Shown here: positions 1 through 64,000 of the stretch, in pieces
Layout: the number at the start of each line of letters is the position of its first letter
Numbering within the stretch: position 1 is the first letter of the stretch
Assembly (NCBI RefSeq): GCF_002854065.1
Contig: NZ_CP024147.1
Strand: one strand, 5' to 3'
Length of the DNA stretch: 64,000 nt
DNA from: Escherichia coli
GTDB taxonomy: Bacteria > Pseudomonadota > Gammaproteobacteria > Enterobacterales > Enterobacteriaceae
Translations under genes and position numbers: made by a program
The notes under the pieces: generated by a model
What the model was told of the DNA's origin: nothing
What the model saw: only the letters and a program-made list of their open reading frames with translations
Databases searched by the model: none

Positions 1-803
<803 letters not shown>

Positions 804-823
804 TCAATCGCTCAATGACCTGA

Positions 824-1345
<522 letters not shown>

Positions 1346-1513
1346 GGGTAGAAATTAATCGCAACGCGCAGATTGCGAGCTGCATTCCACGAAATTTGTA
1401 AGGTTGTGAAGATAGCGTTTTTCACCGGAATCAGGTTAACAAATCAGCGCTCTCTCTGTTGCTGAGCATCCGGAGTTATTCGATGGTGATACTCCAATTA
1501 CAGAGGATGTTTT

Positions 1514-1981
1514 ATGGACACTACCCTTCCCTTTCTAATTTTGTACGCTTGTTTATCAGCCCTACTTTTTTTCTGGGATGCAAAGCATGGCTTGTTACCT
1601 GACAGATTTACGTGCCCGTTACTCTGGTCAGGTCTTTTGTTCTATCAAGTTTGTCATCCTGATGGTTTAGCCGATGCGTTATGGGGGGCAATTATTGGTT
1701 ACGGCACATTCGCTGTCATTTACTGGGGGTATCGCATACTGCGCCATAAAGAAGGATTAGGCTATGGTGATGTGAAGTTTCTCGCCGCCCTTGGCGCCTG
1801 GCATTCATGGGCCTTCTTACCACGACTGGTTTTCCTTGCTGCCTCATTCGCTTGCGGAGCCGTAGTTATTGGTCTGCTCATGAGAGGAAAAGAATCATTA
1901 AAAAACCCGCTGCCTTTTGGGCCATTTCTGGCGGCTGCGGGTTTCGTTATAGGCTGGGATAGTTTGCTGATAGGCCGTTAA
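1514..1981 (+). CDS. gspO: Short A24-family prepilin peptidase-like membrane protein (155 aa)
   Basis: ORF track 155 aa with multiple hydrophobic segments and LLPD and [16 protein letters not shown] motifs typical of the prepilin peptidase aspartyl protease domain; RBS gagga upstream; lies between rpsJ and bfr where K-12 carries the gsp cluster ending in gspO. Symbol is by position and similarity only. Confidence 0.7.
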
Positions 1982-2454
1982 TCTTTAACTTTAATTTGTG
2001 ATTGCAGGTAATTTTGTAGGTCGATTTTACCGATGAGATCCAGTTCAGTTTCGAGCCAGTCGATATGACCTTCTTCATCAGCAAGGATCTCGATCATCAT
2101 ATCGCGGCTAACATAGTCATGAACGCTGTCGGCATATGCGATAGCCTCACGCAGATCCTTCGCGCCTTCCAGCTCTAATCGCAGGTCGGATTGCAGCATC
2201 TCTTCGACATCTTCACCAATCCCCAGTTTGCCTAAATCCTGTAAGTTGGGGACTCCTTCTAAAAACAAAATACGCTCGATATACTTATCAGCGTGTTTCA
2301 TCTCATCGATGGATTCATGGTATTCAACGTCATTGAGACGCATCAGCCCCCAGTTTTTAAACATCCGGGCATGGAGAAAATACTGATTGATTGCGACAAG
2401 CTCATTTCCCAATAGTTTATTGAGATAATTTATGATTTTAACATCACCTTTCAT
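1978..2454 (-). CDS. bfr: Bacterioferritin
   Basis: ORF track 158 aa [37 protein letters not shown]... Confidence 0.95.
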
Positions 2455-2526
2455 TTTATAGTCCCTCCGCTTCCACTATTAGAGCGTAGATGGGGCTAGC
2501 TGGTTGTCAAAAAATAAGCGTGGGCT

Positions 2527-2721
2527 TCAAGCAATCTCTTTAAATTCTGGCATCTGCATCAACTCGTCCTGCATCACTTCGCGCGCGGCGCGAATGCACT
2601 TACCACATTGATTTCCCACAGGAATAAACTTACGCAATTGTTGGAAAGATTGCGGATGAAACTGACGGACTGCCTGGCGAATTTTTTTGTCACTTACACC
2701 ATTACACAAACAAACGTACAT
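2527..2721 (-). CDS. bfd: Bacterioferritin-associated ferredoxin
   Basis: ORF track 64 aa MYVCLCNGVSDKKIRQAV... with CxC...CGKC [2Fe-2S] motif; directly upstream of bfr. Confidence 0.9.
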   Translation of the reverse strand: MYVCLCNGVSDKKIRQAVRQFHPQSFQQLRKFIPVGNQCGKCIRAAREVMQDELMQMPEFKEIA

Positions 2722-2852
2722 GATTGCTCCCGTTCAAATTCTGCGCAAAGTGTAAATGAGAATAGTTATGATTACAATAGCACAGTTTTATTTGCGCCAT
2801 AGTTCAGCGAACAAAATTACGACTAAATATTTCGAGCTCAAATTACGGGCAG

Positions 2853-2877
2853 CAAAAAGGGCGCCGAAGCGCCCTTT
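2853..2877 (-). terminator. Rho-independent terminator downstream of tufA
   Basis: GC stem agggcgc/gcgccct with cgaa loop, followed on the minus strand by a T run. Confidence 0.6.
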
Positions 2878-2903
2878 ACAATTCAAAACTAATTAACGTG
2901 TAA

Positions 2904-4145
<1,242 letters not shown>

Positions 4146-4158
4146 TTAACCCTTAGGC

Positions 4159-6285
<2,127 letters not shown>

Positions 6286-9324: not shown

Positions 9325-9356
9325 ATAAAAAAACCGCCGCCTGGTCAGGCGGCGGT
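9325..9356 (-). terminator. Rho-independent terminator downstream of fkpA
   Basis: Stem ccgccgcc/ggcggcgg followed on minus strand by T7 run. Confidence 0.7.
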
Positions 9357-9365
9357 TCTTAATGC

Positions 9366-10398: not shown

Positions 10399-10617
10399 AT
10401 GCAGGATTTATCATTGGAAGCACGCCTGGCAGAGCTGGAGAGCCGACTGGCTTTTCAGGAAATCACCATTGAAGAACTGAACGTCACGGTGACCGCTCAT
10501 GAAATGGAGATGGCGAAACTGCGCGATCATCTGCGTCTGCTGACCGAGAAGTTAAAAGCCAGCCAGCCGTCGAACATCGCGTCGCAGGCTGAAGAAACGC
10601 CACCGCCACATTATTGA
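10399..10617 (+). CDS. slyX: Protein SlyX
   Basis: ORF track 72 aa [31 protein letters not shown]... Confidence 0.9.
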
Positions 10618-10622
10618 GGCGT

Positions 10623-10650
10623 AAAAAAAGCGGGGATTCCCCGCTTTTTT
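10623..10650. terminator. Bidirectional rho-independent terminator between slyX and slyD
   Basis: aaaaaaagcgggga-t-tccccgctttttt palindrome flanked by A run and T run. Confidence 0.7.
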
Positions 10651-10665
10651 GTCACTTTTTCGGTA

Positions 10666-11256
10666 TTAGTGGCAACCGCAACCGCCGTTACCTTTACCGC
10701 CACAGCAGCCTTCGCCACCGTGCTCATGACCGTGATCATGGCCATGACCACCGCAGCAACCGTCGTGGTCGTGATCGTGGTGATGATCGTGCGCACCGTG
10801 AACGTGGCCATGAGCCAGCTCTTCTTCAGTCGCTTCGCGAATCGCCACAACTTCAACGTTGAATTTCAGGTTCTGACCGGCCAGCATGTGGTTACCATCA
10901 ACCACGACGTGATCGTCTTCAACCGCAGTGATTTCAACCGGTACCGGACCCTGGTCGGTTTCAGCCAGGAAACGCATACCTACCTGCAGTTCATCAACGC
11001 CCATAAATACGTCTTTAGGCACACGTTGCACCAGGTTTTCGTCGTACTGACCGTAAGCGTCGTTCGCGCCAACAGCGACATCAAATTTGTCGCCAACTTC
11101 ATGACCTTCCAGCGCCGTTTCCAGGCCAGAGATCAGGGAACCGTGACCATGCAGGTAGTCCAGCGGCGCACTCACCGGAGACTCATCAACCAACACACCG
11201 TCTTCTGTACGTACCTGATAGGCCAGGCTGACCACCAGGTCTTTTGCTACTTTCAT
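10666..11256 (-). CDS. slyD: FKBP-type peptidyl-prolyl isomerase / metallochaperone SlyD
   Basis: ORF track 196 aa MKVAKDLVVSLAYQVRTEDGVLVDESPVSAPLDYLHGHGSLISGLE... with His/Cys/Gly-rich C-terminal tail. Confidence 0.95.
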   Translation of the reverse strand: MKVAKDLVVSLAYQVRTEDGVLVDESPVSAPLDYLHGHGSLISGLETALEGHEVGDKFDVAVGANDAYGQYDENLVQRVPKDVFMGVDELQVGMRFLAETDQGPVPVEITAVEDDHVVVDGNHMLAGQNLKFNVEVVAIREATEEELAHGHVHGAHDHHHDHDHDGCCGGHGHDHGHEHGGEGCCGGKGNGGCGCH

Positions 11257-62680: not shown

Positions 62681-62715
62681 AAGCAAAACGGGAGGCACCT
62701 TCGCCTCCCGTTTAT

Positions 62716-62718
<3 letters not shown>
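62681..62718. terminator. Bidirectional terminator between convergent pckA and envZ
   Basis: acgggaggc-acctt-cgcctcccgt flanked by A run upstream and T-rich tract downstream. Confidence 0.65.

Positions 62719-64000
<1,282 letters not shown>

Follow-up and report, generated by a model that had tools for sequence, protein, structure and literature searches.

Convergent genes whose coding sequences overlap tail to tail form a long-known class of bacterial gene arrangement. The tetramers TTAA, CTAA, CTAG and TTAG, which can hold the stop codons of both strands, produce a jump at length 4 among convergent overlaps (Lillo & Krakauer 2007, Biol Direct 2:22, PMC2174442). The genome of Escherichia coli K-12 contains 58 convergent overlaps, and in 19 of these a Rho-independent terminator lies inside the coding sequence of the partner (PMC2174442). 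Overlaps of this kind are common and usually have no known consequence. The pair considered here consists of hopD, encoding a prepilin peptidase, and bfr, encoding bacterioferritin, in a 64,000-nucleotide (nt) stretch of an E. coli genome (contig NZ_CP024147.1, assembly GCF_002854065.1; the whole stretch is referred to as the window). Comparison with related loci makes it probable that the bfd-bfr unit ends at a Rho-independent terminator housed in the 3' part of the opposing hopD coding sequence, beside an ordinary 4-nt overlap.

Two further E. coli systems are close to this arrangement. Bidirectional terminators of convergent genes (Ju et al. 2019, SEnd-seq; Wang, Ju & Liu 2022, bioRxiv 10.1101/2022.10.23.513370) consist of a single stem-loop near the junction. 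The hopD-bfr locus likewise has a single hairpin there, flanked by an A-run on one side and a U-rich stretch on the other, and the expected 3' ends overlap. It differs in that the hairpin lies wholly inside one gene, looks canonical for one strand only, and in its plus-strand version stands upstream of the hopD stop. The second system is arfA/mscL, a convergent pair whose 3' regions overlap as in hopD/bfr and for which antisense regulation is reported (PMC10070815).

The junction comprises three features.

1514..1981, plus strand: hopD, encoding a 155-amino-acid (aa) A24-family prepilin (leader) peptidase (open reading frame; Pfam PF01478, E 3e-22).
1978..2454, minus strand: bfr, encoding bacterioferritin, 158 aa (Pfam Ferritin, E 1e-37; NCBIfam TIGR00754 equivalog, E 2e-78).
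1978-1981, both strands: TTAA tetramer containing both stop codons, a 4-nt tail-to-tail overlap (read from the sequence).

The TAA stop of hopD occupies 1979-1981 and that of bfr 1980-1978, reading TTA on the plus strand, with bases 1979-1980 common to both. Each stop uses one base of the last sense codon of the partner (CGT for Arg at 1976-1978 and GAT for Asp at 1983-1981); the stop codons overlap and the sense codons do not. The original prediction gave these stop positions exactly from the sequence and its open reading frames, and its statement that each transcript must enter the opposite gene is right, as there is no space between the two. Domain matches in Pfam and NCBIfam, purifying selection on the orthologues and RefSeq annotation all identify hopD and bfr as genuine coding genes on opposite strands. 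The pair is an exact member of the 4-nt class of PMC2174442, its opposite-strand stops sharing the centre of TTAA, and nothing essential differs. RefSeq annotates the same overlap in E. coli O145:H28 and other strains, and the NCBI annotation shows it in about 2,000 complete E. coli genomes. The junction is an ordinary, already annotated example of its class.

Orthologous loci were gathered by protein search and exact-sequence contig look-ups, giving 14 with the window included; the other 13 come from Salmonella, Citrobacter (four), Enterobacter (two), Lelliottia, Raoultella, Intestinirhabdus, Kosakonia (two) and Silvania. The hopD and bfr genes overlap tail to tail in all 14, which span about ten enterobacterial genera, and the overlap is probably old. 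Among the 13 loci outside the window, five have an overlap of 4 nt and six have one of 17 nt, with 11 nt and 24 nt occurring once each. TTAA or TTAG is found in Salmonella, Intestinirhabdus, Kosakonia and two of the Citrobacter loci, while the other genera have longer overlaps. Hence the exact TTAA is not itself conserved, even though it is invariant among five divergent E. coli alleles. The length of the overlap drifts together with the C-terminal tail of HopD (V145-R155), which is variable in length and sequence, as stop-codon drift predicts.

Beyond the stop of bfr, the minus strand enters the following elements within hopD.

1946..1977, minus strand: spacer of the bfr 3' untranslated region (UTR) from stop to stem, antisense to HopD V145-R155 and poorly conserved (alignment columns 9-42).
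1906..1941, minus strand: core stem-loop of the predicted bfr intrinsic terminator (minimum free energy fold), covering hopD codons N131-G143.
1888..1905, minus strand: U-tract of the predicted bfr terminator (UUUUUUAAUGAUUCUUUU), its U6 (1905->1900) being the A6 of hopD codons L129-K130-N131.

As RNA, the core hairpin reads 5'-CCCGC A GCC GCCA GAAA UGGC CCAAAA GGC A GCGGG-3', with a core stem of CCCGC/GCGGG and GCC/GGC. In its full branched form it is GAAACCCGC-A-GCC[GCCA-GAAA-UGGC]CCAAAA-GGC-A-GCGGGUUUU, followed by UUUUUUAAUGAUUCUUUU. Here an A-U and G·U extension carries the stem to 1945 and 1901, so that its closing U residues belong to the U6 run. The predicted free energy (dG) is -20.2 kcal/mol. 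The U6 is followed by AAUGAUUCUUUU, and the tail scores 4.05 on the minus strand compared with 2.3-3.0 for the plus-strand mirror. Between the bfr stop and the start of the stem there are 32-36 nt, or 19-33 nt in the six other loci measured, which puts the stem beyond the footprint of a ribosome. The mRNA of bfr is predicted to end at about 1897-1903. The whole element is written in hopD codons L129-F144, a region with a conserved peptide motif. A seed for a small RNA derived from the 3' UTR, between the bfr stop and the hairpin, was considered and rejected as the spacer is not conserved.

Candidate terminators across the window were ranked with a custom hairpin and U-tail scan, using an ad hoc score that combines hairpin dG with a d'Aubenton-Carafa-type tail score. 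The hairpin inside hopD scores 32.4, the best minus-strand terminator-like site between tufA and rpsJ and the second of 784 such sites when both strands of all 64 kb are counted. The terminator of tufA scores 24.0. Relative to bfr the element has the features expected of an intrinsic terminator, namely a stable GC-rich stem-loop, an adjacent U-rich tract and an untranslated location shortly past the last stop codon. The original prediction held that no terminator lies between the two genes. This stands trivially, in that the gap has zero length, but not as a lack of termination for bfd-bfr, whose conserved hairpin and U-tract are housed in hopD.

The hairpin is predicted on the minus strand in 14/14 loci, with dG between -17 and -26 kcal/mol, and a U-rich tail is kept in 12 of them. 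Within E. coli, the stems never vary among the five divergent alleles, in contrast to the loop, the flanks and the HopD tail. One E. coli contig (NZ_OX442407.1, positions 1-787) carries an insertion of ISApl1, an IS30-like insertion sequence (IS), that has deleted all of hopD but the final 87 nt. What is left starts 5 nt outside the A6/U6 run, and the hairpin and U6 remain next to bfr; this is an anecdote and not a test.

Several points weigh against reading the element as the bfr terminator. The case is computational throughout, and the 14 loci are phylogenetically related, so counts across them lack independence. In Salmonella (UUUAUUAAUG) and Raoultella (UUGUUCAG) the U-tract is weak. Covariation statistics on the hairpin are not significant alone and are uninformative here, as the stem barely varies. 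A consensus promoter and terminator scan of 1100-3000 reported nothing at the junction. The same scan also missed the textbook tufA terminator, hence the use of the custom scan, and it probably passed over the embedded element on account of its branched loop of more than 8 nt. An Rfam scan of positions 1-4200 gave no match at E <= 1. Finally, the plus-strand mirror of the hairpin ranks 13th of the 784 sites, which leaves some room for a role on the hopD strand. In E. coli it folds about as stably as the minus-strand form (-19.8 versus -20.2 kcal/mol) and is followed by UUUCGUUAU.

This last point raises the alternative that the hairpin belongs to hopD, as a 3' stabiliser of its mRNA or an attenuator about 30 nt before its stop, or that it is a by-product of peptide sequence and codon bias. 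Since the peptide motif never varies, the protein accounts for part of the nucleotide conservation. Synonymous recoding, however, almost never yields a hairpin with a tail. When each of the 14 hopD genes was recoded 200 times for the same HopD peptide with E. coli codon usage, an equal or better terminator score arose in 0-3 of 200 trials per locus, and a dG and tail that were both as good in 0-2 of 200. For hopD of the window, none of the 200 recoded versions was as good as the native hairpin. Third-codon positions are also frozen beyond what the protein requires. Synonymous divergence (dS) between the genera is saturated (1.3 to >3), and at invariant residues with four- or six-fold degenerate codons the pairwise codon identity is 0.66 in the hairpin versus 0.29 in the rest of hopD (Mann-Whitney p 6e-5).

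The changes that are tolerated in the stem fit the bfr strand. Across the alignment 94% (93.8%) of pair cells are paired on the minus strand, compared with 85.7% on the plus strand. There is one double compensatory change, from G-C to A-U in Salmonella, and all other stem changes are wobble-compatible. Wobble cells number 18 G·U in the bfr-strand RNA, each an A·C mismatch in hopD mRNA, versus 0 in the reverse orientation. Through this asymmetry the minus-strand dG is held at -17 to -26 kcal/mol, while that of the plus-strand mirror varies between -9 and -29. Only the minus strand has the long U run. Moreover, the element is translated in hopD, where ribosomes should unfold it, and untranslated downstream of bfr. 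Ownership by hopD, or origin as a by-product, is accordingly considered very unlikely. Judged by recoding, synonymous codons, kept pairing and the G·U asymmetry, the hairpin is more than a shadow of the conserved peptide. By the same comparisons the stretch encoding HopD residues 129-144 is doubly constrained, by protein on one strand and by RNA structure on the other.

The preferred reading, that bfd-bfr terminates within hopD, describes the following course of events. RNA polymerase would pass the bfr TAA (1980-1978), transcribe the variable 3' UTR of 32-36 nt, and then form the branched GC-rich hairpin (1945->1901) with U6 (1905->1900), to be released about 80 nt inside hopD. Termination at this hairpin is the most likely outcome predicted from the sequence. 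Transcripts of hopD presumably continue antisense into bfr. Rho (~2100-2260) or head-on collision with polymerases on bfd-bfr would end the read-through there, or nothing would. The original prediction implied that termination is missing on both sides; this fails for bfd-bfr and probably holds for hopD. Transcription of hopD itself may start from one candidate element.

1459..1487, plus strand: candidate weak sigma-70 promoter of hopD, with -35 TTGCTG at 1459-1464, a 17-nt spacer and -10 GATGGT at 1482-1487.

In a 10-genus alignment the region upstream of hopD is otherwise poorly conserved, but TTG of the -35 element and, in the -10 element, A at position 2 and T at position 6 are invariant. 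The consensus promoter scan did not report this candidate. The promoter would be weak-looking, while the Shine-Dalgarno sequence of hopD is good. Downstream of the hopD stop, the custom scan found no convincing plus-strand intrinsic terminator until 2833-2874. There the reverse side of the tufA terminator would be the earliest sizeable terminator-like sequence in the path of a hopD read-through transcript. On the way the transcript would cross ~2100-2260, where C makes up 30-36% and G 18-22%. This C-over-G stretch could serve Rho. Read-through of hopD into bfr is possible, and presumably weak.

Given this geometry, neither gene may have an effective terminator, and mutual antisense or collision interference could couple expression of the peptidase to that of the iron-regulated bfd-bfr. 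The intergenic space is zero, and with no convincing plus-strand terminator up to 2833-2874 antisense read-through from hopD is plausible. Even with embedded termination, the 3' ends of the two mRNAs would be complementary over at least 80 nt. Precedents exist in the collision-driven termination described at convergent E. coli pairs (Ju et al. 2019, as summarised in bioRxiv 10.1101/2022.10.23.513370) and in the regulatory antisense overlap of the arfA/mscL 3' regions noted above. The bfr strand, however, has a top-ranked conserved intrinsic terminator under strand-specific selection, and with a hopD promoter that is weak at best the antisense output is probably small. The drift of the overlap from 4 to 24 nt fits neutral movement of stop codons and not a tuned device. 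A literature search found no specific report of hopD/bfr cross-regulation or of a mapped bfr terminator. Mutual interference is therefore judged unlikely, though less so than a hairpin owned by hopD. Antisense or collision effects are possible in either direction, from hopD onto bfr or from bfr transcription onto hopD, and nothing here shows regulatory interference.

A variant of embedded termination is that the hairpin acts on both strands, ending bfd-bfr and also halting a fraction of the hopD transcripts about 30 nt short of their stop codon. The plus-strand mirror is located 33-51 nt ahead of the hopD stop, within translated sequence, and in several genera A·C mismatches disrupt its pairing. 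The variant is judged very unlikely. If true, HopD output would depend on the coupling of translation to transcription, non-stop mRNAs arising otherwise, and on head-on traffic from bfd-bfr. The level of an orphan prepilin peptidase would then be tied to iron status through gene geometry alone.

The identity of hopD bears on whether its coding sequence is a real constraint. The Peptidase_A24 match of HopD reaches 79.4 bits against a Pfam cut-off of 26.5. HopD is 41% identical to the peptidase part of K-12 GspO in an alignment that starts at GspO residue 80, and it has no counterpart of GspO residues 1-79, the N-terminal methyltransferase domain found in bifunctional PilD/GspO enzymes. As this domain is missing, HopD is a peptidase-only member of the family and not a GspO orthologue. 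The names given in the original prediction were thus correct for bfr and for a prepilin peptidase, and the gspO-like label gives way to the HopD type. Annotations of Salmonella, Citrobacter, Lelliottia and others call the orthologues 'leader peptidase HopD', and those of enterohaemorrhagic E. coli use the name HopD as well. Residues D22 and D86, the latter in GYGDVK, are invariant in 13 orthologues and are presumably the two catalytic aspartates, the second in the G-x-G-D motif of the A24 family.

These data also bear on the idea that hopD is left over from a lost type II secretion cluster and is decaying, the region being in effect the bfr 3' UTR and the overlap an annotation artefact. Decay could account for the missing N-terminal domain of GspO/PilD-type enzymes, for truncated copies in Shigella and the IS-disrupted copy in one E. 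coli strain, and for the lack of any match to HopD in NCBIfam and Protein Data Bank (PDB) sequence searches. It could also account for a protein that evolves about ten times faster than Bfr, with a nonsynonymous divergence (dN) between genera of 0.28-0.41 versus 0.03-0.05. Against this, the reading frame is intact, at 151-160 aa, in at least ten genera even though dS is saturated. The dN/dS ratio of hopD is 0.11-0.23 against other genera, compared with 0.01-0.04 for bfr. The Shine-Dalgarno sequence, the ATG, both aspartates and the GYGDVK and PFGP motifs are all conserved, and the A24 match is far above its cut-off. Decay is hardly credible on this evidence, and hopD looks like a real but fast-evolving gene.

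The species E. coli carries two types of locus at this site. Positions 1140-2900 of the window match one E. coli chromosome at 99.9% identity and 2,222 others at 95-99%. The layout rpsJ-peptidase-bfr-bfd-tufA is found in 2,252 of 5,426 complete E. coli genomes, including O145:H28 and O157:H7. Across the junction (1880-2000), O157:H7 strain TR01 matches the window with 100% identity. The other ~3,150 genomes, K-12 among them, have a cryptic gsp type II secretion cluster (gspA-O) with bfr-bfd and chiA at the site, and their bfr-bfd is ~78% identical to the window at the nucleotide level. Bfr of the window is 89% identical to that of K-12 in amino acids. With a dS of 1.11 and a dN of 0.095, the two bfr genes are as diverged as between genera, and K-12 Bfr is farther from that of the window than are the Bfr proteins of Salmonella, Enterobacter and Citrobacter (dN 0.03-0.05). 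This suggests that one whole block, including bfr-bfd, was replaced by horizontal transfer.

In K-12 (b3335/b3336), as in the window, bfr is convergent with a prepilin peptidase gene, lies between the S10 and str operons and has a GC-rich hairpin past its stop. The K-12 peptidase differs in being the 225-aa GspO of the cryptic type II secretion system. The K-12 junction differs in having a 28-nt gap between gspO and bfr with a dedicated, perfect 8-bp GC hairpin (CGGGAGGG-TTCT-CCCTCCCG, plus strand) and poor U-tracts. As this gap carries a hairpin, bfr has a 3' hairpin in that type of locus too.

The junction is surrounded by the following genes and one terminator.

162-791, minus strand: rplC, at the start of the S10 ribosomal-protein operon (open reading frame).
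824-1135, minus strand: rpsJ, likewise at the start of the S10 operon (open reading frame).
2527..2721, minus strand: bfd, bacterioferritin-associated ferredoxin, the upstream gene of the bfd-bfr unit (Pfam Fer2_BFD, E 1e-15; RefSeq).
2859..2876, minus strand: terminator hairpin of tufA (str operon), GGGCGC-UUCG-GCGCCC with U5 (custom scan).
From 2904, minus strand: tufA (open reading frame).

The tufA terminator forms the upstream boundary of the bfd-bfr unit. The order rpsJ-hopD-bfr-bfd(-tufA) is kept in all 13 further loci, as far as each contig reaches. For Salmonella, Brandis et al. (PMC6735719) name bfd, bfr and hopD as the insertion that separates the str operon from the S10 operon. In the Lelliottia locus (contig positions 2958-3344) bfr is called as 128 aa, compared with 158 aa in the other loci with gene calls, probably reflecting a start-codon or sequence difference.

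The region also holds several side observations. In the minus-strand spacer between bfd and bfr (2455-2526), a short hairpin with U6 (AAGCCCACGCUUAUUUUUUG) adjoins TTGACA, with a possible -10 element TACGCT 16 nt further on, as seen by eye. This may be a partial terminator after bfd that overlaps a bfr-specific promoter, although it scores low in the custom scan; the arrangement recalls terminator-promoter overlaps reported by Brandis et al. Upstream of bfd, an AT-rich imperfect palindrome at 2750-2790 (GAGAATAGTTATGATTACA) agrees by eye with ~12/19 positions of the 19-bp Fur-box consensus. Such a candidate would fit the iron control of bfd, the promoter of which is regulated by Fur. Compared with E. 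coli O145:H28, 28 differences occur in 1,761 nt, of which 22 are clustered in bfr at 2017-2347 (dS 0.24) and 1 lies in hopD (dS 0.009); the cluster looks like a short recombination patch.

On the other side of hopD, a minus-strand hairpin TCGCAA-N8-TTGCGA at 1378-1359, followed by TTAATTTCTA, was considered as a backup terminator and rejected, since it is found in E. coli and arguably in one Enterobacter but is not kept in the other genera. It stands directly upstream of the S10 promoter (-35 at ~1340-1335, -10 at 1318-1313), and only its A/T-rich block is conserved. It could stop read-through antisense to hopD ahead of that promoter. Elsewhere in the 64-kb scan, other textbook hairpin and U-tract sites occur at 9333-9362 (minus strand), 10603-10671 and 62682-62723. 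Clearly bidirectional terminator pairs are seen at 10603-10644 (plus) with 10671-10630 (minus) and at 62687-62710 (plus) with 62723-62682 (minus).

The lesson of this locus is that an absence of room for a terminator is not the absence of a terminator. What it may add to the class of PMC2174442 is comparative evidence, for one pair, that an embedded terminator constrains the synonymous sites of its partner. About 45 nt would constitute a clean, conserved case of dual coding, serving as a peptidase motif and as an opposite-strand terminator. The case may be useful to benchmark terminator finders, which usually skip coding sequence. Recoding or deleting the 3' end of hopD would be expected to deprive bfr of its terminator, with transcription running on towards the promoter of the S10 ribosomal-protein genes. 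The wider biological importance is small; the value of the locus is as a well-supported, computational example of an embedded terminator.

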